From positions 1-37,707 of the IMG/VR virus record IMGVR_UViG_3300045988_121638: a DNA stretch of 37,707 nt. One strand, 5' to 3'. The notes beneath the pieces are model-generated. The model saw only the letters and a list, made by a program, of their open reading frames with translations. It was not told the origin of the DNA and did no database searches. This DNA comes from a virus. Below, in pieces: positions 1 through 37,707 of the stretch; within the stretch, counting starts at the first letter, position 1; every line of letters begins with the position of its first letter. The translations under genes and the position numbers were made by a program.

Positions 1-162
1 ACGCTGCACTATAGTCGCCTGTGGCTGACGCTGCACTATAGTCGCCTGTGGCTGATGCTGCACCTTGGTAGCCTGTGGCTGATGCTGCACCTCGGTAGCC
101 TGTAGCTGACGCTGCACCATAGTTGCTTGTGGCTGACGCTGCACCTTGGTCACCTGTGGCTG
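1..162. repeat. 27-bp coding tandem repeat, 6 units (one end of an array that continues at 37421..37707)
   Basis: Units acgctgcac-(tatagtcgc/cttggtagc/ctcggtagc/catagttgc)-ctgtggctg start at 1, 28, 55, 82, 109 and 136. On the coding (minus) strand each unit encodes a nonapeptide of the form S-A-T-G-x-x-x-A-A (e.g. SATGDYSAA). Confidence 0.95.
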
Positions 163-889
163 TCTTACCCTCCTTCCACTTGCATTTTTCAAACGTAAAC
201 TTAACGGCTGCGTCTACAAGACTCTTAATACTTAGTTCAGCTCCTATGTGGATTTTTGAGCAAGCAATTTTCGTATCATCCGTATCTACGTCCATATCGC
301 CAGTCCCCTCAACCTCGTGAAACTTATTCATGCCAACTAAGGCAGGTGAATAGTAACCGAACACGTCCAATGGATGGAGGCAGAAGTGAAATCCGTTACC
401 GCAAGCCATTATATCGCCTGTTTCTTCATAGTCCTTACCTTCTTCGTATTGGAACCCCCTACATGTCAAATCGGGGTTAAAACCTTTGTACCCTTTGATT
501 TTGACAAATTCCTTTGGTAAGGTAACGTTATCCGGCAGGTTTGCTCTAAGTACCATGTACGCCATGTAGCTGGCGTCAAATCCGGCTATCCCGGTGCCAA
601 TGGCAGTTAGGAGGAATTCCTTTTCCGGATGCTCGTTAGCGTAATTCCCGAAGTTTTCTAAAAATACCAGCAGTTCTTCTTCAGTTACTTTCTGCATATC
701 CTTGTCCAGCGTAGGGATAGCATAGGACTGACCTTGTATCCCTTTTGCTTTCCCCATAATTGCGCCAAATTTCTCAACTGCCAATCTAGCTGCACCTCCG
801 GCGTGATTGCCGTTCATATTGCTTCCAAAAACGAATATTTGATTCTCTTTCAGTTCCTGAATATTCTCAGGTGTTAATTCTCTTTTCAT
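1..889 (-). CDS. N-terminal part (296 codons + 1 nt) of a junction-spanning phage protein: A1S_2505-like N-domain + DUF7666-like domain + start of a nonapeptide-repeat region. It continues in frame at 37690 downward if the molecule is circular
   Basis: ATG at 889-887, in an ATGA overlap with the stop of ORF 886..1101. Translation MKRELTPENIQELKENQIFVFGSNMNGNHAGGAARLAVEKFG..GQSYAIPT, then KGYKGFNPDLTCRGFQYEEGKDYEETGDIMACGNGFHFCLHPLDVFGYY, then ATGDQGAAS/ATSNYGAAS/ATGYRGAAS repeats. It is absent from the ORF track because there is no stop before the window edge. Confidence 0.7.
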   Translation of the reverse strand, partial: MKRELTPENIQELKENQIFVFGSNMNGNHAGGAARLAVEKFGAIMGKAKGIQGQSYAIPTLDKDMQKVTEEELLVFLENFGNYANEHPEKEFLLTAIGTGIAGFDASYMAYMVLRANLPDNVTLPKEFVKIKGYKGFNPDLTCRGFQYEEGKDYEETGDIMACGNGFHFCLHPLDVFGYYSPALVGMNKFHEVEGTGDMDVDTDDTKIACSKIHIGAELSIKSLVDAAVKFTFEKCKWKEGKTATGDQGAASATSNYGAASATGYRGAASATGYQGAASATGDYSAASATGDYSAA

Positions 890-4427: not shown

Positions 4428-4726
4428 TTAAGATTTATTAGAAAATAATTTTAACGCCATCTCCACATCTACTACAATCGTTCTGCCTGATTGGGAAACA
4501 GCTCTCTTTATTGGCCCGTTTTTAACTTTCGGGCGGTGGAATCTGACACATGGAATAACTCCTTAATTCCTTTCAAACCATATACTAATCGTTTCTCTGA
4601 TTTAGATTGCGTGGGAACCACAGGTGTAATCTTTGGAACCAGGCTTTCAAAGAGTTCTTTCAGCTCCCCTACGGTTAAATCTATCAACCTGGTATCATCG
4701 CTTATCCGTCTTTCAATTGGTATCAT
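4428..4726 (-). pseudogene. DUF3853-like helix-turn-helix (excisionase-like) gene with a frame break
   Basis: Track ORF 4508..4726 ends ...LVYGLKGIKELFHVSDSTARKLKTGQ*. The -1 frame continues PIKRAVSQSGRTIVVDVEMALKLFSNKS* to a stop at 4428..4430. That matches the family C-terminus (G.I..A.SQ.GR.I.VD...AL.L) and restores normal spacing to the next gene. The break is at GGGCC, 4511..4518. Confidence 0.55.
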
Positions 4727-5127
4727 AATTTGCCCTCCTTGACCCAGTTATAGATAGAATCCACATGATAGATAAAGTCTGAATCGGCAACACCAGCTGA
4801 TAACATCTTAACGATCTCCTTCCTCAACTCAATATCATTACTACTTCTTTGAGAATTTTCTTCTGATGCAATTTTTGCGTCTTTCAGTTCGCTTACACAA
4901 ATCTCTTTGAAACTTGCGCTATAAAAACTATCTATCATAAATCGCACAAGGCCTATCTCGCTACTCTCAAAAATATCCACAAATTCATGAGGGATTCTAT
5001 CAGATATTATGGCATTAAGCCCATTATCCAATTTTACCGCATACGTTCCATCAGGACGCTGTTTCAATGTCAATACATATCTCTTTTCCATTTTCTTAAA
5101 AAGAAAAGCCCTCGCTGTTCTCAGCAT
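4723..5127 (-). CDS. hypothetical protein, first gene of the leftward early operon
   Basis: The track ORF 4723..5154 starts with TTG. ATG candidates are at 5127 and 5091 (MEKRYVLTLKQ...). No motif recognised. Confidence 0.5.
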   Translation of the reverse strand: MLRTARAFLFKKMEKRYVLTLKQRPDGTYAVKLDNGLNAIISDRIPHEFVDIFESSEIGLVRFMIDSFYSASFKEICVSELKDAKIASEENSQRSSNDIELRKEIVKMLSAGVADSDFIYHVDSIYNWVKEGKL

Positions 5128-5154
5128 AATTGGTGTTTGGCTGATACTTAGCAA

Positions 5155-5440
5155 GAGCTTTATTTATGTCCTAAATTACGGTAAACACCACTAAACCGTA
5201 TCGTCTATTTTTTAATCTGATTTTTAGGATATTAAAATGGAAGTCACTATATTTGCCGTTGGAACAATTTTGGTGCGAACAAAATCACGGTTTATACCGT
5301 GACAGCCATTTTTATACCCTTTTGCAACCGATTGTTGATTGGTTACGGATGCAAAGTTAAATGAATATGTATACATAACAAACGTTTTTGAATAAAAGTT
5401 TCGTTGTATTTGTTTATTTAGATTAATTTTAAATAGCATT
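5155..5440. promoter_or_regulatory. divergent intergenic control region between the leftward early operon and the rightward cI-like gene
   Basis: 286 bp with no credible ORF between divergent genes. One plus-strand match to the Bacteroides -7 promoter consensus TAnnTTTG (TATATTTG, 5248..5255). No operators identified. Confidence 0.3.
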
Positions 5441-5839
5441 ATGGAAGAAGAATTAAGGTCTCGATTTAAAGAGGTATTGAATTTTTATAATTCTAATATC
5501 AACCAATTGGCTAACGGAGAAAGCTCTACACAAGTCCGATTGTCTCGTCAAATTAATAAGGGTGCATCTATTACTTATGATACAATAGCCATCCTTCTTG
5601 AAGCCTTCCCGAAAGTGTCTGCCGAATGGTTACTACGAGGTAAAGGAGAGATGATTGTAGCCTCATCGCAAGAGTCGACTGAAAAAGTTAATACTGAAGG
5701 TCTCTTTGGCGATGTATTGTTAGAATTTATTAAGGTTGTAAATAAAAGACTGAGCAGCATAGACAATAATACGGCCCCAGCTGTAGACAAGTTACAAGGC
5801 CTTACAGAGATTCTTTCCGAGTTAAGAAAAACTGCTTAA
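5441..5839 (+). CDS. CI-like HTH repressor
   Basis: 132 aa, one of only two plus-strand coding segments. The N-terminal HTH ends in the motif LLEAFPKVSAEWLLRGKGEM, typical of phage CI-repressor-type HTH domains in Bacteroidota. Divergent from the early operon. Confidence 0.55.
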   Translation: MEEELRSRFKEVLNFYNSNINQLANGESSTQVRLSRQINKGASITYDTIAILLEAFPKVSAEWLLRGKGEMIVASSQESTEKVNTEGLFGDVLLEFIKVVNKRLSSIDNNTAPAVDKLQGLTEILSELRKTA

Positions 5840-5896
5840 TTTATGGAATAATTAAACAATGCATATGTATTATACGTTTATTATGATACTTAAATA

Positions 5897-6826
5897 CTAA
5901 TATCTAAATAATGAACGTATCAATAGACGACTTAAAAAAACTAATGGCTCGTCTGTCTTAATCGTTGTGGTGGTAATATACCCGTCGAAAACGTCAGCTT
6001 TCTTAAGGTTCTTCACATCGGAATATCGCAGGGAGGTGAAGCACTGGAAACAGAATACGTCTTTCGCGATTTCAAGATGAGGCTCATTCGGGAATGATGA
6101 GTTATACACTCTTATTAATTCGTCCCATTCGAGGTATATCACCTTTGATGGAATCGTTTTCAGTTTTTCCTTAAACGTCATAAATGCAAGTTCTTTATTG
6201 ATTCCCTTGTCCGCTGCCCATCTGAGAAACCATTTGGTCAGATTGATATACTTCTTCGCGGTACGGTTCTTCATTCCGACTTCATCATCTATCTCTACGT
6301 TCATCAAGTAGTCAACGAGCTGGGATAATCCTTCGTGTGTGAGGTCTGCAAAGGTAAGATTGGGGGCAAACTTCTTTAAATGGTTCATTGTGGTTTTGTG
6401 CCTCTTATATGTATTCTCGGACCAGCTGTTTTCTTTACCCTGTTCCGTAATGAATTGCATATAGTAATCGAAGATGGTTTTTTCTTCTTTTTCTACGATT
6501 CTCCCATTCCTTCTATTGACTTCATTCCGAAATTCATCTGTGGAGGGTATATGCTCGGTTTGTTCGAAAAAGAAGAAGGCGTCATTAATCAGCTCTTCGA
6601 ATCGGTTTATCTCGGCATTAATGGTCGATGCCGGTACCTTTTTCTTACCATGGGTAGTGTTTACCTTGCATCGCTGGGCTTCTGCTACCCATTTGTTGTT
6701 GTCTACTCGATAGCCAATATTGAAGGCTACTGTGTTGCCGTTCCACTTAATCCTATATCGGAGTTTGGAATCGGGCTTGCCTTTCTCCTTGTCCAAGAGA
6801 AAGGTAGTTGTTCGTTTGATGTTCAT
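5897..6826 (-). pseudogene. int: N-terminal ~295 aa of a Bacteroides-type tyrosine integrase, truncated by inversion
   Basis: MNIKRTTTFLLDKEKGKPDSKLRYRIKWNG... (arm-binding N-domain), a SAM-like core-binding domain and the first catalytic Arg in CFTSLRYSD. Similarity stops after ...TIKTDEPL at 5942, followed by 14 unrelated codons and a stop. Confidence 0.8.
5942..5949. repeat. left copy of the 8-bp inverted repeat at the inversion breakpoint (TAATGGCT)
   Basis: Reverse complement of 7887..7894. It sits beside a local 6-bp inverted repeat AGACGA (5925..5930) / TCGTCT (5949..5954). Confidence 0.6.
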
Positions 6827-6834
6827 TGGGTAAA

Positions 6835-7749
6835 TTATTTAATGTTTGCTAGTGAGAAGAAAAACACTTCTGACTTTTGGTTTTCTGATGATATTGTTAT
6901 TGAATAAAATGTATCCTTTGATGAATTATTATGAGGCAAACATTTGATGGAGAATGTTTTTTTATGATTAAATTCATATAAAGAATAGTCTATATGTGTT
7001 TTAAGAAGAGAGGATAGGTAAAATTCGTATAATAAATGTCCATTCTTGTATATCCTAAAGCATTTATCTGAAATATCTACATAATTATTTTTATTAGATA
7101 GTATAGATGTGAAAGAAGTAAGTAATTTAGTCCCATCATATAAACCATATCCAAGTAAATAGAACTGTCCAAAAGGGAGCGAAATATTATTTAGATTTAC
7201 TGGTCTGTTGATCAAACTAGAATAAGATTGTGATTCTTTAATTTTTGCTTGATTCATTGTTGATATACTTCCGTCCATATATTGAATTTTTATAGAGGTA
7301 GGAATAAATTCTTCTATAGTAGAGTCATACCATACATTACTAAAGGTTTCGTTTCTATATTGCATAAATTTAATAGGGCCAGTAACCTTACAAATCGTAT
7401 TAGAATGTTTCCTAATATGGCAAAAACACTTATCTCCAACAGCATTGATAGGATAGCCATTTATATAAATATATTTGATGTCTTTATTTACAATATTCAT
7501 TCCTGAAAACGATAAATCAACCCCTCCACAGGAATCAATGGATTTTATATTTATTGCATTGACAATAAGAGGAATTTTGTTTTTTATTTTATTGATGATA
7601 GATGTATGCGATAAAGCATCCAATGTTGAGAGATAATCCTTTTTAAGAAAAGAACTATCTCTACTAATGTAGGGCTTAATGCTATCATTTTGCGAATAAG
7701 AAGTCGTAGAAATTAATAATAGTAATAATGCAATTAAAACATTTTTCAT
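6835..7749 (-). CDS. exported protein of unknown function (AT-rich cargo gene)
   Basis: 304 aa with an N-terminal signal peptide MKNVLIALLLLLISTTSYSQ (no lipobox Cys). Asn/Ile/Lys/Ser-rich. The DNA is visibly more AT-rich than the flanking phage genes. Confidence 0.65.
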   Translation of the reverse strand: MKNVLIALLLLLISTTSYSQNDSIKPYISRDSSFLKKDYLSTLDALSHTSIINKIKNKIPLIVNAINIKSIDSCGGVDLSFSGMNIVNKDIKYIYINGYPINAVGDKCFCHIRKHSNTICKVTGPIKFMQYRNETFSNVWYDSTIEEFIPTSIKIQYMDGSISTMNQAKIKESQSYSSLINRPVNLNNISLPFGQFYLLGYGLYDGTKLLTSFTSILSNKNNYVDISDKCFRIYKNGHLLYEFYLSSLLKTHIDYSLYEFNHKKTFSIKCLPHNNSSKDTFYSITISSENQKSEVFFFSLANIK

Positions 7750-7882
7750 GATTGATGATCTTGATAATTTTTTTTTAAATTGAAATATTTCTTAGAAGTC
7801 TTGCGACCATTACATATAATAAGAGTGAGATGTGTATATTTTTTCTTAATGTGTTCATCTTGGCTGTATGATTCTTCTTTAA

Positions 7883-8272
7883 GCTCAGCCATTAAAGATA
7901 GAGCTTAATAAGTACTCTAAAACCATATTGGACAAATACAAGGACATAAAGGGTATCTATGCGCTTCCTGTCCCTGTCAACCAACGGATGAACAAGTATA
8001 TAAAAGAAGTATGTGCAGTCTGCGAAGTCAATGAACCGGTGTGCATAACCTATTACAAGGGTTCGGAAAGAATAGATGAGATACATCCCAAACACGAATT
8101 AATCGGCACACATTGCGGAAGGAAAACCTTTATATGCAACGCGCTCATGCTAGGCATCGCGCCTAATATTGTGATGAAATGGACAGGCCACAGAGATTAC
8201 AAGTCCATGAAACCCTATATTGACATAGCAGACAAAGTAAAACAGGAAGCTATGACTCTCTTTAATCGTTAG
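7883..8272 (+). pseudogene. int: C-terminal ~125 aa of the same tyrosine integrase, on the opposite strand
   Basis: The frame is open from 7883. ...PLKIELNKYSKTILDKYKDIKGIYALPVPVNQRMNKYIKE...IGTHCGRKTF...MKWTGHRDYKSMKPYI carries the HxxR and H...Y catalytic residues. The track ORF 7928..8272 starts at an internal TTG. Confidence 0.8.
7887..7894. repeat. right copy of the 8-bp inverted repeat at the inversion breakpoint (AGCCATTA)
   Basis: Reverse complement of 5942..5949. It lies directly after the left arm of a local 8-bp inverted repeat TTAAGCTC (7879..7886) / GAGCTTAA (7901..7908). Confidence 0.6.
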
Positions 8273-8282
8273 TCCCTATTTT

Positions 8283-8314
8283 AGTCCCCGATTTCATCAA
8301 ACCGGGGACTTTTA
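8283..8314 (+). terminator. intrinsic terminator after the integrase 3' end
   Basis: AGTCCCCG (8283..8290) - 12-nt loop - CGGGGACT (8303..8310), followed by TTTT. It sits between convergent genes. Confidence 0.6.
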
Positions 8315-8319
8315 CCAAT

Positions 8320-8529
8320 CTATTTATCCTCTATAAAATCAACCCTGCAACCCAGCGCATGCCCAATCTTTGCAAGGATATCTATACCTGTACTATACCT
8401 GCCAAGCTCTATACGTGCTATGTGACCCGGATCAATGCCGGCTAACTCAGCCAACTTCACTTGGGACAATCCTCTTTGCTTTCTAAGTTCGGCAATACGC
8501 TTGCCGATACGTCCTCTCTCATCCATCAT
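8320..8529 (-). CDS. XRE-family HTH transcriptional regulator
   Basis: 69 aa. IGKRIAELRKQRGLSQVKLAELAGIDPGHIARIELGR is a textbook Cro/C1-type HTH. Confidence 0.8.
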   Translation of the reverse strand: MMDERGRIGKRIAELRKQRGLSQVKLAELAGIDPGHIARIELGRYSTGIDILAKIGHALGCRVDFIEDK

Positions 8530-8732
8530 CTTACAACTGCATCTTCAATTATTGCACTGTATGGCCTTCCCATCTGGTCCTTAACGTTAGAACGCTCCAA
8601 GTCGATGGTCAACCCTTCAAGATTAATACCCGCTTCTTCTGCCAGCTCTCTTACATGATCTTCGTCACGCGCAATTGCGTGATAAAGTACAGTTTCATAA
8701 TGATTCTCTTCGTAGATATTGTATGAGTTCAT
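8526..8732 (-). CDS. hypothetical small acidic protein, translationally coupled to the XRE gene
   Basis: 68 aa. Its stop overlaps the XRE start (ATGA at 8526..8529). Confidence 0.5.
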   Translation of the reverse strand: MNSYNIYEENHYETVLYHAIARDEDHVRELAEEAGINLEGLTIDLERSNVKDQMGRPYSAIIEDAVVR

Positions 8733-8788
8733 AATCTTATATTTTATAAAATTGAAAATTGCTTGTTTATTAATTCAAATAATAAAAC

Positions 8789-9028
8789 TTATTTTTCCCA
8801 AATTGGTTTGTGAAAGCTAAACTTATCGTTATCTCTATTGTAATGGACATAGCCGCTCTTTATCACATTAGAATCTTTCTCTATGAAATATAGTGAATCG
8901 CCGTAAGAATCATTTTTTTGAGCCATTTCTTTAGCTTCTTCTACTGCTACTTTACGAGCTTCTTTTATAGTGTTTGCTAAAATTTTTTTATTATCGCTTA
9001 ACCCTTCTATATATACTGTATACTTCAT
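8789..9028 (-). CDS. hypothetical small protein (AT-rich)
   Basis: 79 aa ATG-started ORF, Lys/Glu-rich, in an AT-rich stretch. No motif recognised. Confidence 0.45.
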   Translation of the reverse strand: MKYTVYIEGLSDNKKILANTIKEARKVAVEEAKEMAQKNDSYGDSLYFIEKDSNVIKSGYVHYNRDNDKFSFHKPIWEK

Positions 9029-9075
9029 ATTCCGTACCCGTCATGCCGATAGCGCAGCATTTAATATATAACCAA

Positions 9076-9354
9076 TTAAAACATTTTACCTTTTAAAATA
9101 TCACTGATATATAGCACGAAGTTCTTATCACTTAAAGTATCATCAGCGAAGAAGTTGAATAGGAGACCATTTCCAAGAGCTTGTATCTTCCCAAAGGCCG
9201 CTACCATCAAATTAGACACTTGTTCTTGGTTTGCTTGTGGGGCCTCTTTAATCAATCTATCCATTCTCGCTCTTACATCGAGAAGCATAATGTCATGTGC
9301 GTTTTTACGGCCTTCTGCTGTTTTGTTTAATTCTTTATATGTATTAGGTGTCAT
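9076..9354 (-). CDS. hypothetical small protein
   Basis: 92 aa ATG-started ORF. No motif recognised. Confidence 0.45.
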   Translation of the reverse strand: MTPNTYKELNKTAEGRKNAHDIMLLDVRARMDRLIKEAPQANQEQVSNLMVAAFGKIQALGNGLLFNFFADDTLSDKNFVLYISDILKGKMF

Positions 9355-9422
9355 AATCTTAATGCCGCTTATCCGTTGCCGCCGGTTCTATTGTTATTTT
9401 GATGCTGCAAAGATAAGCGTTT

Positions 9423-9456
9423 ATTTTCTTACTGCAAAATATTACAGTAAGAAAAT
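9423..9456. promoter_or_regulatory. perfect 12-bp inverted repeat (candidate operator or RNA hairpin)
   Basis: ATTTTCTTACTG (9423..9434) - 10 nt - CAGTAAGAAAAT (9445..9456), in the 142-bp gap between ORFs 9076..9354 and 9497..9979. No U-tract on either strand. Confidence 0.4.
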
Positions 9457-9496
9457 TCATAATGACTGCGTTTTTTAACATTTAGAATGCCTACAC

Positions 9497-9979
9497 CTAC
9501 TTCCTGGCGTCATACATTGCAGCCATATACACCCATATCTTGCCTTGTGGGGCGTCCTCGTCGGCAAAGTAAAACCTATGGGCACCCTTGAGGATCTGAG
9601 CATCATCACAGACCATACACATATCGGCATAAAATGAGTTAAACGCGACATACTTATCCCACTTGGTTGTACCCGAAGGAAAAGACATTCCCCTTGCAGC
9701 TTCCTCTATCTGATCGGCAGTCCAATGGGCACCGGTTCTTTTCTCACCGGACGGTCCTGTATAACGTATACCCTCTACATCCATTTCGGCAAAATTCCTG
9801 TCGTAGTGGTTGCCGTACAGTATGGAGTGCTGCTTGCGCATAAACCGCCAGTATTCGTCCGGATGCTCATCCCTGAGGATACACAGCATATCACTCAATG
9901 TGTCCACGCTCTGCCACATTGCCTTGTCGGAGGCTACACCGTTAGCCTTGGCATCCCTAATCATATCCTTATATTCCAT
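9497..9979 (-). CDS. hypothetical protein (160 aa from the first ATG)
   Basis: The track ORF begins with TTG at 10048. The first ATG (MEYKDMIRDAKANG...) is at 9979. Trp/Tyr-rich globular sequence, no family recognised. Confidence 0.55.
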   Translation of the reverse strand: MEYKDMIRDAKANGVASDKAMWQSVDTLSDMLCILRDEHPDEYWRFMRKQHSILYGNHYDRNFAEMDVEGIRYTGPSGEKRTGAHWTADQIEEAARGMSFPSGTTKWDKYVAFNSFYADMCMVCDDAQILKGAHRFYFADEDAPQGKIWVYMAAMYDARK

Positions 9980-14750: not shown

Positions 14751-16736
14751 TTACAAATTTTCAAGTAATTTAGTGATACTTTCGGTTAATCTTAAAGTAG
14801 ATCTCCCACTTTTATCAGTATGTGGATGAACACCGTCTGGACAATAATACTGAAACAAAGATATGTTGTTTTTATTATTTTTTTTTCCTGTATAATTGAT
14901 AACTGTATAGCCAGTGCCATATTTAGAGTTATAATCAGATATATAGTTACTGGTATTAGGTATAAATTCGAGAGTAAATCCATTAAAGTCACACATATTA
15001 AGATAAGGAAAATTAAAATGCTTTGCTATTTTCTCTAATAAAGAACATATTAAATAGCCTTTTTTCCCTCGTATGTCATTTGGGAATTCTGGACTTCCTG
15101 TTTTATTTTCTAAATACGAACATATTATGATTTTTATATTTGGATTAACTCTATAAATTTGATTTATTAAAAAACAAAAAGCCCCAATAAATGTGCTTCT
15201 GTCGTATTCTTCAGGCTCTTTATCGATAGACAAATCTAAAGAGTCGAAACTATTTACTAATTCACCTGATATGGCACCCCTATCATTGTATCCATGGTCA
15301 AATACTACAATATCACAACTGGCAATATTTCCATTTATATAGGGTAATAACAATTTATCATATCCCCAATTCATCATTTTACTATATCTATCTTGAGTTA
15401 TTGTACCATCCGTTCCATCTCCTATGTGCAACTGGTATCTTTTTATTTTTTCTTCTGTACTTTCAGATAAGTCTTTTCCGTCCCTATCATTTCCTAGTAC
15501 ACCTGAGTTTAGGATAATACCGGAAGAACCTAATGCTTTATTATAGCATACATTCCGTAATTTGTTACAAGCATTTTGCGGATAAGGGCAACCTTCAGGA
15601 ATAGAAGTTCCAAGCCATAGTACTTCTTTTTTGGTTATAACAGGAATATCATCTTTAAACGCTATATCTTTGTCGATATATTCTAATTTTGTTAATTGAC
15701 TATCAGTACGTGGATTTGCTTCAGATATTGCTATATAAGAAGTATTTTCAGGAGTTTTTACTTCAAAATTATTAAGAAAATTGGTAGCACATTCTTTATC
15801 TGTTATTCCACTTATTACGTTTTTTTGATTATTAAGAAATGTAATAGAATACCAAAAAGAAGCTGTCCCATTAGCTAACCCTGTATTTGTATTAATTAAA
15901 AAGCTTGTATTAGGCTCTGCTGGATAAATACTATGATATCTAAGTGGTGACGTAACAATAACCCCACTTGTATCATATATACCATGCAATGATTTTTCAT
16001 GTACGGAAACGGGAATGTATTTTTTATCTTTTATTTTATTATCAATGGTATCAATTTTATTATCAATGGTACCAATTTTATTATCAATGGTACCAATTTT
16101 ATTATCAATGGTACCAATTTTATTATCAATGGTACCAATTTTATTATCAATGGTACCAATTTTATTATCAATGGTACCAATTTTATTATCAATGTTATCA
16201 ATTTTGAGAACTAACGGTTGTACTAATTCTACAATATCAGTTTTAGTTATTTTAAATAAACCACCTCCTTTATTAAACTCATTATTTCTTATAGAATATT
16301 TGATAATACAATCGATGTTGATTTTTAGTATTTTTCCATATCCATTATAAGCATCACCACCCTTCTGCAAATAAACTACACTGTCATTTACATAAATTGC
16401 AAAAACTCCATACACATTAGCTAATTTATCCTTTATATTTATATATATTGCATCACCTTTTTTTACTTTAGTAGAGCAAATTTTTATATCTCTAAATTCC
16501 GTGATTTGTCCTGTATCCGATAATATAGAATTTTCCTTAATATTATCCGACAATAAAATCATATCATTTTTTATAAAAGCTTCAGTACTTTCTCCTTGTA
16601 ATGAACTTATTTCACTATTTAACTTGATAAGTTCAAATGAAAGACTCTTACGACTAGTTGGATGTACCACTGCATCAGTGGTTGTAGCAGGATAAATTGT
16701 CTGCCCGCCTTTGGTCAGTTTATGAATTTTAGCCAT
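14751..16736 (-). CDS. tail fibre / receptor-binding protein with a heptad-repeat stalk and a C-terminal SGNH(GDSL)-type esterase-like domain
   Basis: 661 aa. The stalk has repeated IGTIDNK heptads. C-terminal blocks VLWLGTSIPEG (I), ALGSSG (II), FDHGYNDR (III, GxND) and CPDGVHPH (V, DxxH). It is the last gene of the tail module. The DNA is visibly AT-rich. Confidence 0.7.
   Translation of the reverse strand: MAKIHKLTKGGQTIYPATTTDAVVHPTSRKSLSFELIKLNSEISSLQGESTEAFIKNDMILLSDNIKENSILSDTGQITEFRDIKICSTKVKKGDAIYINIKDKLANVYGVFAIYVNDSVVYLQKGGDAYNGYGKILKINIDCIIKYSIRNNEFNKGGGLFKITKTDIVELVQPLVLKIDNIDNKIGTIDNKIGTIDNKIGTIDNKIGTIDNKIGTIDNKIGTIDNKIDTIDNKIKDKKYIPVSVHEKSLHGIYDTSGVIVTSPLRYHSIYPAEPNTSFLINTNTGLANGTASFWYSITFLNNQKNVISGITDKECATNFLNNFEVKTPENTSYIAISEANPRTDSQLTKLEYIDKDIAFKDDIPVITKKEVLWLGTSIPEGCPYPQNACNKLRNVCYNKALGSSGIILNSGVLGNDRDGKDLSESTEEKIKRYQLHIGDGTDGTITQDRYSKMMNWGYDKLLLPYINGNIASCDIVVFDHGYNDRGAISGELVNSFDSLDLSIDKEPEEYDRSTFIGAFCFLINQIYRVNPNIKIIICSYLENKTGSPEFPNDIRGKKGYLICSLLEKIAKHFNFPYLNMCDFNGFTLEFIPNTSNYISDYNSKYGTGYTVINYTGKKNNKNNISLFQYYCPDGVHPHTDKSGRSTLRLTESITKLLENL
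16033..16200. repeat. 21-bp coding tandem repeat, 8 units (6 identical)
   Basis: attttattatcaatggtacca repeated. Units start at 16033, 16054 ... 16180. The first and last units are variants. The array encodes (N/G/D)-x-IDNKI heptads of the fibre stalk. Confidence 0.95.
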
Positions 16737-35662: not shown

Positions 35663-36583
35663 TTATTTAATTTTTAAAAAGTTGCTCATTCGCTCAATGC
35701 ATCTTTGTTTCTGATTGAGATTGGGATGCACATATAAATTGAGTGTGGTAGCGATATTCGAATGTCCAAGAATTACACTCACTGTCTTATAATCGCATTG
35801 ACTTTCAATGCATCTGGTAGCAAATGTATGCCGGAGTCCATGAAACACAATGTGCGGAATATTCAGACGCTTCAAGAGCCGGGCAAAGAAATCACGGTAA
35901 GAACGGGGATCTTCCGGACGTTCTGATGTTCCTACTACAAATCGGGACGGAGATATTTTCTTTACTTCCTTCAAGGCAAAGAGAAGCTGTCTTGAGATAG
36001 GTATCTCCCGGTATGAATTTCGTGTTTTGGGAGAAGTGAAAGTCCTTTCCGTAGTTCTTGATTCGCAGTTGTATATCCTTCCTGCTGTATAACTAATGGT
36101 GATTACCTTCTGTCTGAAATCCACATCTTCCCATCGCAGGGCACACACCTCTCCAATCCTCATGCCGGTACACAGAGACAGCAGAATGCCTATATTCTTA
36201 GGAGTTGGGGATTCGGTGAGATGGCTCATCAGTATCTGTTGATGGTTTAAGGACAAAGTAGGCAAACGGTGAGATTCGGTATCTGTAGGATAGTTTATCT
36301 CCCACTCCTCATAAGGGAATAACTTATGTTTCCCACCATACTTGACTATAGATTTCAGCACCGCCACAATATCCCTTACGGTTTTTTTAGCAAGACCAGA
36401 GGAAAGCTTGTCGAGAACAAATTTCTGAACGTCGCTTTCCGATATAGCTGTCGCCGTCCCAAAATATGGGAGTAAATGGGTTTGAAGGGTAAGCATATAC
36501 GCACACATCGTGGCATGCTTTATAATAGGTTGCTTCGCAGCACTCCAAATCCTGGCGACTTCTTGAAATGTTTTAGTATTCAT
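35663..36583 (-). CDS. tyrosine recombinase (XerC/D-like site-specific integrase), intact
   Basis: 306 aa. The full catalytic set is visible: GMRIGEVCALRWEDV (R), HGLRHTFAT (HxxR), LGHSNIATTLNLYVH (H...Y). Confidence 0.85.
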   Translation of the reverse strand: MNTKTFQEVARIWSAAKQPIIKHATMCAYMLTLQTHLLPYFGTATAISESDVQKFVLDKLSSGLAKKTVRDIVAVLKSIVKYGGKHKLFPYEEWEINYPTDTESHRLPTLSLNHQQILMSHLTESPTPKNIGILLSLCTGMRIGEVCALRWEDVDFRQKVITISYTAGRIYNCESRTTERTFTSPKTRNSYREIPISRQLLFALKEVKKISPSRFVVGTSERPEDPRSYRDFFARLLKRLNIPHIVFHGLRHTFATRCIESQCDYKTVSVILGHSNIATTLNLYVHPNLNQKQRCIERMSNFLKIK

Positions 36584-37208: not shown

Positions 37209-37707
37209 CTAAGCCTCCTTAAGCTGTCCATTGACTAGCATATACCATGTGTCAGCCTTAACCTTTTTCCCGTCAACTTCAAATGCCTTAACCTCTTTAA
37301 TCGGGTAGGTATCACCGTTCCATTCTCCACGCTCTGCGAGGACTATCCAGCAACCTATAGCTCCCTTAGCCTTACACCCGTATCCGGCAGCAAGAGCAAT
37401 GCTATCCTTGCCGGTAGCTGACGCTGCACCTCGGTAGCCTGTGGCTGATGCTGCACCTTGGTAGCCTGTGGCTGACGCTGCACCTCGGTAGCCTGTGGCT
37501 GACGCTGCACCTCGGTAGCCTGTAGCTGACGCTGCACCATAGTTGCTTGTGGCTGACGCTGCACCATAGTTGCTTGTGGCTGACGCTGCACTATAGTCGC
37601 CTGTGGCTGACGCTGCACCTCGGTAGCCTGTGGCTGACGCTGCACTATAGTCGCCTGTGGCTGACGCTGCACTATAGTCGCCTGTGGCTGACGCTGCACT
37701 ATAGTCG
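37209..37707 (-). CDS. C-terminal part of the junction-spanning DUF7666 repeat protein (see 1..889)
   Basis: Stop TAG at 37209..37211. The frame is set by ...GAASATGYRGAASATGKDSIALAAGYGCKAKGAIGCWIVLAERGEWNGDTYPIKEVKAFEVDGKKVKADTWYMLVNGQLKEA*. It joins nt 1 in frame if 37691..37707 (or 37664..37707) is treated as assembly overlap. Confidence 0.7.
   Translation of the reverse strand, partial: DYSAASATGDYSAASATGDYSAASATGYRGAASATGDYSAASATSNYGAASATSNYGAASATGYRGAASATGYRGAASATGYQGAASATGYRGAASATGKDSIALAAGYGCKAKGAIGCWIVLAERGEWNGDTYPIKEVKAFEVDGKKVKADTWYMLVNGQLKEA
37421..37707. repeat. 27-bp coding tandem repeat, 10 units + 17 nt (other end of the array at 1..162)
   Basis: Units start at 37421 and every 27 nt to 37664. 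The last 44 nt are identical to 1..44. Confidence 0.95.

Follow-up and report, generated by a model that had tools for sequence, protein, structure and literature searches.

Introduction

Deletion mutants of the Streptococcus thermophilus phage Sfi21 are reportedly non-integrating derivatives of a temperate phage. Invertible segments of phage genomes include the G segment of Mu and the C segment of P1, which are flipped by the serine invertases Gin and Cin. These enzymes act on conserved sites of ~26 bp together with an enhancer, switch tail-fibre genes, and leave both orientations to be found. The Mu invertible segment is cited in PMC12823448, and prophage decay and 'grounding' have been reviewed (PMC6379469). 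In Bacteroides, an intragenic inverton has been listed for the integrase gene BT0375 of B. thetaiotaomicron (Chanin et al., PMC10028968). Inversions that arise by template or strand switching at short inverted repeats are also known (PMC8604942; PMC4417113; PMC10766183).

The DNA analysed here, IMG/VR record IMGVR_UViG_3300045988_121638 (37,707 nucleotides; its full length is referred to as the window), comprises the whole circular genome of a siphovirus-like phage. Genes for terminase, portal, major head, and tape-measure proteins are present in the window, and the contig is circularly permuted relative to contig L002. A megablast search of the phage GenBank collection with positions 4500-9500 returned a 48-bp match only and no close isolate. 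The representative genomes of GTDB contained no exact match to the left flank of the rearrangement and no integrase (Int) relative above 39% identity. The host probably belongs to the Bacteroidales, as judged from the names of homologues with 58-59% identity and from host flanks. The original prediction for this genome, made from the sequence alone, stated that its integrase gene (int) is divided into two oppositely oriented halves by an inversion. A reversible switch, a one-off inversion, and an assembly choice were offered as readings.

Split integrase gene and inverted segment

The positions of the two int halves agree with the original prediction (Table 1). The minus-strand ORF comprises 309 aa, namely Int residues 1-295, ending ...TIKTDEPL, and a tail of 14 unrelated residues. 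It holds the arm-binding domain, the SAM-like core-binding domain, and the first catalytic Arg (SLRYSD). The rest of Int is encoded in a plus-strand frame, which is open from 7883, reads AQPLKIELNKYSK..., and stops at 8272. This part carries the HCGR (HxxR) and GHRDY...KPYI motifs but no ATG, and gene callers start it at TTG 7928, which gives a product of 114 aa. The domain order of a one-polypeptide integrase (arm-binding, SAM-like core-binding, catalytic) is split over two strands in the window. As claimed earlier, the full catalytic set (Arg, HxxR, His/Trp, Tyr) is missing from each half. Catalytic residues were assigned by motif and Pfam alignment span and not by structure; a search of solved structures gave weak SAM-like domain matches only and was of no aid in placing them. 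Judged from these motifs, neither fragment should be able to recombine DNA.

Table 1. Coordinates of features around the inverted segment and of the second recombinase gene in the window.
Feature	Coordinates	Strand	Remarks
132-aa cI-like ORF	5441..5839	+	Intact; lineage-specific S113P
Int N-terminal fragment ORF	5897..6826	-	Pfam PF13102 (E=1.5e-13) and PF17293; residues 1-295 identical to P0121
Orphaned first codons of the 59-aa ORF	5911..5941	+	Outside the inverted segment; read from sequence
Inverted segment	5942..7894		1,953 bp with the two 8-bp repeats counted in; matched by L016-L025 in reverse orientation (7894..5942) at 99.9-100% identity
Left 8-bp inverted repeat, TAATGGCT	5942..5949	+	Codons 11-13 of the ancestral 59-aa ORF; holds the ATG of the 48-aa ORF
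304-aa cargo gene	6835..7749	-	Signal-peptide-like N-terminus; unmatched in Pfam and PHROG; inverted with the segment
48-aa ORF	7746..7892	-	Ancestral 59-aa ORF minus its first 11 codons, lost to the inversion
Int C-terminal fragment	7883..8272	+	Residues 294-420; P0122; 100% identical to relatives over 7887..8289
Right 8-bp inverted repeat, AGCCATTA	7887..7894	+	Codes for Pro294 and Leu295 in full and for part of Glu293 of Int
Single remaining 19-bp repeat, AGTCCCTATTTTAGTCCCC	8271..8289	+	Scar of the 182-bp deletion; attP core lost
69-aa HTH (Cro/CI-type) gene	8320..8529	-	Pfam HTH_3, E=3.7e-14
Second tyrosine recombinase, 306 aa	35663..36583	-	Intact; Pfam PF00589, E=3.3e-29; PHROG integrase, E=2.5e-58

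Flipping 5942..7894 in silico yields a single 420-aa ORF, which bears out the expectation of one uninterrupted gene. Homologues of 420 aa with 99%, 85%, 79%, and 58% identity align to the flipped protein along its entire length, and exactly this protein (P0121) is present on 23 contigs read from public assemblies. The comparison with integrase profiles, which had been proposed as a check, returned the domains Arm-DNA-bind_5 and Phage_int_SAM_5 (PF17293, PF13102). The match to Phage_integrase (PF00589) spans residues 254-408 and thus crosses the junction, but it is weak (16.8 bits, below the 27.1-bit cut-off). Homologues with 85% identity to the flipped Int do match PF00589.

Another proposed check, a comparison with the closest relatives, defined both ends of the inversion to the base. 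Ten contigs (L016-L025) follow the flipped window colinearly, with 99.9-100% identity (blastn). Their alignments to the real window break at 5942-5949 and 7887-7894 with an overlap of 8 bp at both breaks; the inversion, therefore, neither lost nor gained a base. The two overlaps are exact reverse complements, the same inverted repeat that had been reported earlier, and identity ends on both sides of the 8 bp. The corresponding normal junctions read ACTAATGGCTGAGCTTAAAG and GACGAGCCATTAAAGATAG. A search of the whole window for longer inverted repeats revealed many chance imperfect pairs, none of which is located at the breakpoints. The 8-mer is not over-represented (three copies in the window vs 1.7 expected) and carries weight only through its presence at both breakpoints.

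Short palindromes beside each junction, also part of the original prediction, are indeed present in the sequence. The one with 6-nt arms is matched or beaten at 10% of random positions and the one with 8-nt arms, in which the right junction sits, at 0.8%. Both arms of each palindrome already exist in uninverted relatives and were, therefore, not created by the inversion.

Ancestral prophage and loss of the attachment site

In relatives with the intact 420-aa gene, the gene order is 132(+), 59(+), 304(+), 420(+), tRNA-Arg attR, followed by host asnA, UDG, and LptD. The restored int is co-directional with the cI-like and cargo genes, as had been foreseen, since all of these are plus-strand genes in relatives. 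The integrase gene is located at one prophage end, ~50 nt from attR in tRNA-Arg(CCG), and attL lies at the other end; the ~50-nt layout was seen for identical and 85%-identical Int genes. Comparison of integrated and free forms identified the att core as the 3' end of tRNA-Arg, GTACACCCGATGAGAA. In attP this core is flanked by repeated AGTCCC(C/T) motifs. Contigs L016 and L017 represent integrated forms with host flanks and L049 the free form with an intact attP; close relatives are still integrating prophages at the tRNA-Arg site. The family, accordingly, has int adjacent to attP and a matching attB, while in the window the core is deleted.

The canonical free phage (L049) possesses two copies of a 19-bp direct repeat, 182 bp apart, which flank GTACACCCGATGAGAA and are probable candidates for arm-type Int sites. 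Only one copy remains in the window, no core-like sequence was found there at up to three mismatches, and homology to all relatives ends at 8289. The 182-bp deletion is present in every contig that spans both the flipped right junction and the att region. This second lesion had escaped the first reading of the sequence.

The inversion also involved the genes preceding int. The 304-aa cargo gene, which is AT-rich (25-29% GC), is located directly upstream of int on the same strand in relatives. The canonical 59-aa ORF is present in L016-L024; its orphaned codons in the window include a poly-A tract at 5934-5940. One source names a member of the 132-aa cI-like cluster 'C2 repressor'. The 69-aa HTH gene is the first phage gene beside attL in integrated relatives. 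The 306-aa recombinase is conserved in uninverted relatives (positions 873-1793 in L016). It lies ~7 kb from the inverted segment around the circle, and nothing links it to the inversion. A scan for sigma-70 promoters was uninformative for Bacteroidales.

Orientation across lineages

All contigs found in the flipped state match the window at 99.9-100% identity. Flipped junctions are invariably accompanied by the bases 5777C/7644T/7769T and the attP deletion, wherever a contig covers these positions. Normal junctions are always combined with the alternative bases and, in contigs that extend far enough, with an intact core. Orientation, lineage SNPs, and attP status are thus in complete linkage, with no mixed types among ~30 contigs from assemblies. 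All 16 other contigs with the same repeats are in normal orientation. The six contigs with the left flank that came from scans of IMG/VR and metagenomes all have the normal orientation. No flipped or attP-deleted junction was found in the IMG/VR scans.

A 2x2 test with exact proteins gave the same picture. The combination 59-aa/Y was present on 212 contigs and 48-aa/N on six, and neither cross type was found among ~15 billion proteins. The common lineage yielded no flipped form, and the marker lineage no unflipped one. Two groups of candidates for flipped states elsewhere were rejected. The 114-aa Int C-fragments on a 123-kb host contig proved to be deletions, foreign insertions, or a scaffold gap in normal orientation. 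Other variants of the 48-aa ORF (P0172) have canonical left junctions, and some result from changes in poly-A length. Independent damage to int was seen in other family members, which fits the expectation of ordinary decay.

The derivative was recovered as a free circular contig in three samples, apparently of one cohort. The source samples are apparently those of PRJEB8094 (SAMEA3182058, SAMEA3182082, and SAMEA3182106, which may represent one participant at days 0, 7, and 90), together with the runs underlying ERZ27297008, ERZ27296987, and ERZ1504163. A single person or cohort may be the source of every flipped contig, so that the orientation is to be called fixed for that lineage only.

Origin of the inversion

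In our view, the inversion is best explained as one conservative event at a microhomology of 8 bp, in a lineage that has lost the capacity to integrate; we give this a probability of about 85%. The ancestor is a common temperate prophage of gut Bacteroidales that integrates at the 3' end of tRNA-Arg(CCG) beside asnA. Its normal lysogeny end consists of the cI-like gene, the 59-aa ORF, the 304-aa cargo gene, the 420-aa Int, and attP ~50 nt past the int stop. Two lesions separate the window from this state: a conservative 1,953-bp inversion between copies of TAATGGCT, codons 11-13 of the 59-aa ORF against Int codons 293-295, and a 182-bp deletion between the two 19-bp direct repeats that removed the whole attP core. 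The predicted products after inversion are an N-terminal fragment with the first catalytic Arg only and a promoterless C-terminal fragment with HxxR and the Tyr region. With no attP core, even an intact Int could presumably not integrate the phage, and the outcome would be a non-integrating, 'locked-out' derivative. Such a derivative agrees with what is found: int is split, attP is deleted, virion genes are kept, and the genome occurs as a free circle. As its cI-like gene is intact, the phage does not qualify as a classical virulent mutant, which is counted against our reading.

The comparisons above directly demonstrate the rearrangement with its ends, the ancestral state, the loss of attP, and the linkage of these to one lineage. 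The flip most likely took an illegitimate route at the 8-bp repeat, either by strand switching linked to replication or by recombination over short homology. We infer, rather than observe, the order of inversion and deletion and the current lifestyle of the phage (lytic or episomal). One of the earlier readings, a one-off inversion through a secondary att-like core or template switching that locked the phage out, survives in part. Its one-off and lock-out elements accord with the linkage and with the deletion of the attP core. The secondary att-like core has to be given up, since GTACACCCGATGAGAA is unlike AGCCATTA. The 8-mer had been tried as such a core and was ruled out once the real core was defined.

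An unlikely alternative, although the strongest of those considered, is a one-off 'suicide' reaction in which a tyrosine recombinase, either the phage's own Int or the 306-aa enzyme, inverted the segment at chance pseudo-sites. The overlap region of tyrosine recombinases is of a size that 8 bp fits, and the perfect identity over this very length is counted against our reading. Also, the event was perfectly conservative, one site is inside int near attP, and the junctions lie within short dyad symmetries; the rarity of the right-junction palindrome is likewise counted against our reading. Moreover, site-specific deletions in the lysogeny module of S. thermophilus phage Sfi21 are said to have been described by Bruttin and Brussow in 1996. 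Against these points, the att core and its flanks resemble neither the 8-mer nor its flanks, and the 6-nt palindrome is unremarkable. The dyad arms are unequally spaced from the core (11 and 0 nt on the left; 0 and 6 nt on the right), a misfit with two half-sites around a 6-8-bp overlap. Finally, the event did not recur among hundreds of contigs with the same sites.

Very improbable, in our estimate, is the reversible inverton of the original prediction, in which a site-specific recombinase, e.g. the 306-aa one, flips 5942..7894 and thereby toggles int and re-orients the cargo operon. It would account for a flip that is lossless and in frame, as a reversible element would also show, and for int halves that are undecayed (0 differences from L025 over 1,515 nt). 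Both of these observations are counted against a one-off event. The genome has a second intact tyrosine recombinase, a fairly rare palindrome contains the right junction, and Bacteroides has intragenic invertons, one of them in an integrase gene (PMC10028968). However, the assemblies do not contain both orientations in one lineage or population. Orientation is fully linked to the three SNPs and attP status, cross types are absent from the 2x2 test, and the 16 contigs with both repeat copies are in normal orientation, among them L016 and L048, the only two that extend to the second-recombinase region, which both carry. The repeat has 8 bp, occurs at chance frequency, and shows no similarity beyond its ends, whereas that of the thiC inverton has 11 nt (PMC10028968). 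Other family members lack the cargo ORF in which the left copy is situated, none of the contigs terminates at a junction, and with attP deleted nothing would be gained by turning int back on.

Orientation was read from assemblies, and a minor fraction of the other orientation may exist in the source samples, a possibility also counted against a one-off event. Since consensus assemblies would miss a minor orientation, we leave a slim chance to a low-frequency, recombinase-driven switch in the phage's own integrase, with the window lineage caught or locked off. In a weaker variant of this reading, the 295-residue arm-/core-binding fragment would be kept as a DNA-binding antagonist of related resident prophages.

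It is hardly credible that the assembly is in error, or took a chance route through a mixed population, and that the real molecules are all in normal orientation: metagenome assemblies and not reads were examined and the repeat is shorter than any assembler k-mer, but a de Bruijn graph at k=31 or more is not misled by 8 bp, a balanced flip needs two exact chimeric joins each time, and both junctions recur unchanged in several samples, in contigs whose names are MEGAHIT-style, scaffold-style, or NCBI-deposited. With the junctions spanned by contigs of at least three naming styles (L002-L006, L026, L043, and L045) and no contig ending at one, the assembly-choice reading of the original prediction does not hold. 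The source was apparently bulk DNA (HiSeq PE101) and not amplified viromes, if the label RAYM16 corresponds to PMC4817689, as we infer.

Comparison with known systems

The restored Int resembles lambda-type tRNA-targeting integrases in its arm-binding, SAM-like, and catalytic regions and in its position beside an attP that copies the 3' end of tRNA-Arg. Unlike in functional systems of this type, the gene is split and the core deleted in the window, and the system is non-functional. Lifestyle predictions that score 'integrase present' would call this phage temperate, which calls for caution.

As in Mu G/Gin and P1 C/Cin, the segment is carried by a phage, falls within the 2-4 kb class, and has inverted repeats at its ends. 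In contrast to these systems, serine invertase, ~26-bp sites, enhancer, tail-fibre switching, and the presence of both orientations are all absent here.

The Bacteroides intragenic invertons (PMC10028968) are similar in that one end of the flip is inside a coding sequence, the genome is Bacteroidales-associated, and an integrase is affected. The earlier remark that a split phage integrase was without known precedent has to be tempered in view of BT0375, which is already listed there. These invertons are reversible, show both orientations per population, have longer repeats (11 nt in thiC), and many are wholly intragenic. Here, by contrast, the other end is in an ORF 1.95 kb away, the repeat has 8 bp, and there is one orientation per lineage.

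Inversions by template switching resemble our case in being rare one-off events in which bases are neither lost nor gained and both junctions have a short perfect inverted microhomology. In the majority of documented cases, a spacer of tens of bases is inverted or the products are duplicated. Compared to these, a clean 1.95-kb balanced flip at 8 bp represents the long and short extremes, respectively, and template switching is a candidate mechanism here. The locus thus adds a data point on short-repeat inversions in phage genomes.

The closest likeness is to non-integrating derivatives of temperate phages: structural genes are intact, int is inactivated, attP is lost, and relatives are functional tRNA-site prophages. 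The window cleanly documents how a temperate gut phage lost integration in nature, a known kind of event with no new mechanism. Public data contain the derivative as well as its ancestor, the latter in integrated and in free form, and each lesion has been located to the exact base. The flipped form may also mark its lineage, so that a non-integrating variant can be followed within one cohort. The int lesion differs from those of other such derivatives in being a balanced inversion and not a deletion, frameshift, or insertion, and the cI-like gene is intact. Unlike laboratory-selected derivatives, this phage came to light in gut metagenomes, as a circular genome in free form.

Split integrase gene and its intact relatives

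The Bacteroidales-type tyrosine integrase gene (int) is present as two fragments in opposite orientation. The 8-bp repeats at the two break points are exact reverse complements of each other, with identity stopping at 8 bp on both sides. As originally predicted, inverting 5942..7894 in silico restored a single 420-aa ORF; it displays Arm-DNA-bind_5 and Phage_int_SAM_5, and a weak Phage_integrase match (residues 254-408) spans the junction. The 8-mer occurs at chance frequency (three copies against 1.7 expected), so its weight comes from its presence at both break points, not from abundance.

Features of the window and of related contigs with damaged int genes
Sequence	Feature	Position	Strand	Description
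Window	Int N-terminal fragment ORF	5897..6826	-	309 aa: 295 Int residues ending ...TIKTDEPL, plus 14 unrelated residues
Window	Int C-terminal fragment	open from 7883, stop at 8272	+	continues ...PLKIELNKYSK...
Window	left 8-bp repeat	5942-5949		TAATGGCT
Window	right 8-bp repeat	7887-7894		AGCCATTA
Window	304-aa cargo gene	6835-7749	-	25-29% GC (about 40% in neighbours); signal-peptide-like start
Window	306-aa recombinase	35663..36583	-	second, intact tyrosine recombinase
Window	poly-A tract (A7)	5934-5940		inside 59-aa ORF, directly left of 8-bp repeat
Window	19-bp repeat, single copy	8271-8289		AGTCCCTATTTTAGTCCCC
Window	hairpin	8290-8317		AGTCCCCGATTTCATCAAACCGGGGACT; overlaps surviving 19-bp arm-type repeat; stem is one AGTCCCC motif
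Window	27-bp tandem array	1-162 and 37410-37705		~17 copies in all
Window	21-bp tandem array	16033-16205		8.2 copies, 98% matches; within 661-aa ORF 14751..16736(-)
L007 (protein P0033)	int fusion	6062-7585		RNase_T exonuclease domain in place of arm-binding domain
L036	int with deletion	5964-6785		internal
L040, L041, L044	int replacement			N-terminal part replaced
L037	foreign element end	1-172		'...CTGAGCC', inserted next to attR
L038/L042	foreign element end	1-60		'...CTGAGCC', inserted next to attR, at another position than in L037

A protein search revealed many homologues of 420 aa that align over the full length (100%) of the restored ORF, with identities of 99, 85, 79, and 58%. The exact restored integrase (P0121) was found in the protein collection and read on 23 contigs. 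Their gene order, namely a cI-like gene (132 aa), a 59-aa ORF, the 304-aa gene, and int (420 aa), all on the plus strand, is the one predicted for the re-inverted segment. To the right of int follow a tRNA-Arg(CCG) gene and the host genes asnA, UDG, and LptD; contigs with these host genes are integrated prophages with int at the right end. By blastn, ten P0121 contigs were colinear with the re-inverted window at 99.9-100% identity. Alignments of the same ten to the real window break at both 8-bp repeats with an 8-bp overlap. The inversion is therefore real and conservative, comprising 1,953 bp with no base lost or gained. The 85% homologue (P0005; contigs L012 and L013) is labelled 'Telomere resolvase' by NCBI; its position at the tRNA-Arg attR, at an integrated prophage end, rules this out and identifies an ordinary integrase.

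Consequences for genes of the inverted region

Of the catalytic residues, the N-terminal fragment retains the first Arg (SLRYSD), along with both the arm-binding and the core-binding domain. HCGR and GHRDY...KPYI are left on the C-terminal fragment, which is devoid of an ATG and of upstream gene context. The inversion also removed the first 11 codons of the 59-aa ORF; the truncated ORF and the 304-aa gene now point towards the cI-like gene, severed from their former upstream region. The 304-aa protein had no Pfam or PHROG match; members of its cluster bear the JGI name 'Zn-binding protein involved in type VI secretion'. Its gene is broken into 183 + 89 aa in contig L067 and 126 + 89 aa in L069. 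The poly-A tract has one A more in L067 and L070 (A8) and one fewer in L071 (A6), and the small ORF ahead of the cargo gene is frameshifted there; either slipped-strand variation or errors from low coverage could account for these differences.

Outside this region, the genome resembles that of a complete siphovirus-like phage, with genes for terminase, portal, major head, and tape-measure proteins. The ends of the circular contig fall within the 27-bp tandem array; contig L002 crosses the join. A broken, overlapping alignment in L002 suggests a differing copy number of the 21-bp array.

Loss of the attachment site

The similarity of all relatives to the window ends at 8289, 17 nt past the int stop codon. 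The attachment core of the family was defined by comparing integrated forms (L012, L016), free forms (L013, L049), and the other prophage end (L027-L029, L031). This core, GTACACCCGATGAGAA, is the 3' end of tRNA-Arg(CCG) and lies about 50 nt downstream of int. In the free canonical (uninverted) phage L049, it is flanked by two perfect 19-bp direct repeats, 182 bp apart, each with two AGTCCC(C/T) motifs that look like arm-type sites.

The window holds one copy of this repeat, and no core-like sequence occurs anywhere in it at up to three mismatches. These two observations indicate that 182 bp were cleanly deleted between the direct repeats, and the attP core with them. The same scar is present in L002, L006/L026, L030, L034, L043, and L045. 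Integration at the normal site would thus be impossible even with intact Int. The arrangement of hairpin and surviving repeat is shared by canonical relatives, where it lies in the P' arm.

Origin of the inversion

Neither the att core nor its flanks resemble the 8-mer or the sequence around it, so that the proposed secondary att-like core is not indicated. Both predicted junction palindromes are present. Palindromes at least as good as the 6-nt one occur at 10% of random positions, against 0.8% for the 8-nt one. The arms are unequally spaced from the core, and uninverted relatives already have all of them; the palindromes were not created by the event and are not a regular recombinase site. 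Since 8 bp fits the overlap region of tyrosine recombinases, a live minority option is that a recombinase acted on chance pseudo-sites. The favoured route would be illegitimate, replication-linked strand switching or short-homology recombination at the 8-bp inverted microhomology, a general mechanism described previously (PMC8604942, PMC4417113, PMC10766183).

Evidence for a single historical event

All fetched contigs were tabulated for both junction types, three lineage SNPs, and attP status. Flipped junctions (the window, L002-L006, L026, L043, and L045) were found only with 5777C/7644T/7769T and, where the contig reaches, the attP deletion. Normal junctions (16 contigs: L016-L025 and L046-L051) were found only with 5777T/7644C/7769A and, where the contig reaches, an intact core. 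The three substitutions private to the flipped lineage each change an amino acid (S113P in the cI-like protein, E36K in the 304-aa protein, and Y to N in the small ORF), and every canonical relative, more distant ones included, has the other base.

The left break point cuts the small ORF, and an exact-protein test set the length of this ORF against its marker residue. The 59-aa form (normal) with Y occurred in 212 contigs and the 48-aa form (flipped) with N in 6; both cross types were absent. Other 48-aa variants were ruled out as flipped, their left junctions being canonical; some are explained by adjacent poly-A length changes. Six further contigs with the left flank were all in normal orientation (6/6), and both the flipped junction and the scar of the attP deletion were absent from IMG/VR.

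A reversible switch, as one reading of the original prediction had it, would flip the segment back and forth. Judged from assembled contigs, it is not supported: orientation is linked to the SNPs and attP status with zero mixed types, and canonical relatives hold both 8-bp copies, none flipped, including two (L016, L048) long enough to hold the 306-aa recombinase region as well. An assembly artefact is rejected, since contigs with MEGAHIT-style, scaffold-style, and NCBI-deposited names, drawn from several samples, share the junctions. None of the contigs ends at a junction, so nothing hints at branching in the assembly graph. Scaffolds labelled RAYM16-1 (BioSamples SAMEA3182058, SAMEA3182082, and SAMEA3182106) are probably from the cefprozil cohort of PMC4817689 (24 participants, three time points, bulk DNA, HiSeq, Ray Meta assembly at k=31); their accession numbers are 24 apart, which may reflect one participant sampled on days 0, 7, and 90.

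The SNP and attP linkage, the protein test, and the unflipped relatives point to one historical event. This agrees with the proposed one-off inversion locking the phage out of integration and excision, now extended by the attP deletion.

Comparison with other lysogeny lesions

Loss of int or attP is well known in temperate phage derivatives; a balanced inversion is a less common lesion of a broken lysogeny module. The present case joins this kind and is unusually well documented. Related phages and prophages carry int genes damaged repeatedly, and independently, by other routes. These include domain fusion, internal deletion, N-terminal replacement, and insertion of the ends of a foreign element. 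Prophage decay has been reviewed (PMC6379469). Intragenic invertons are known in Bacteroides, one of them in the integrase gene BT0375 (PMC10028968); these are reversible, with longer repeats than those described here.
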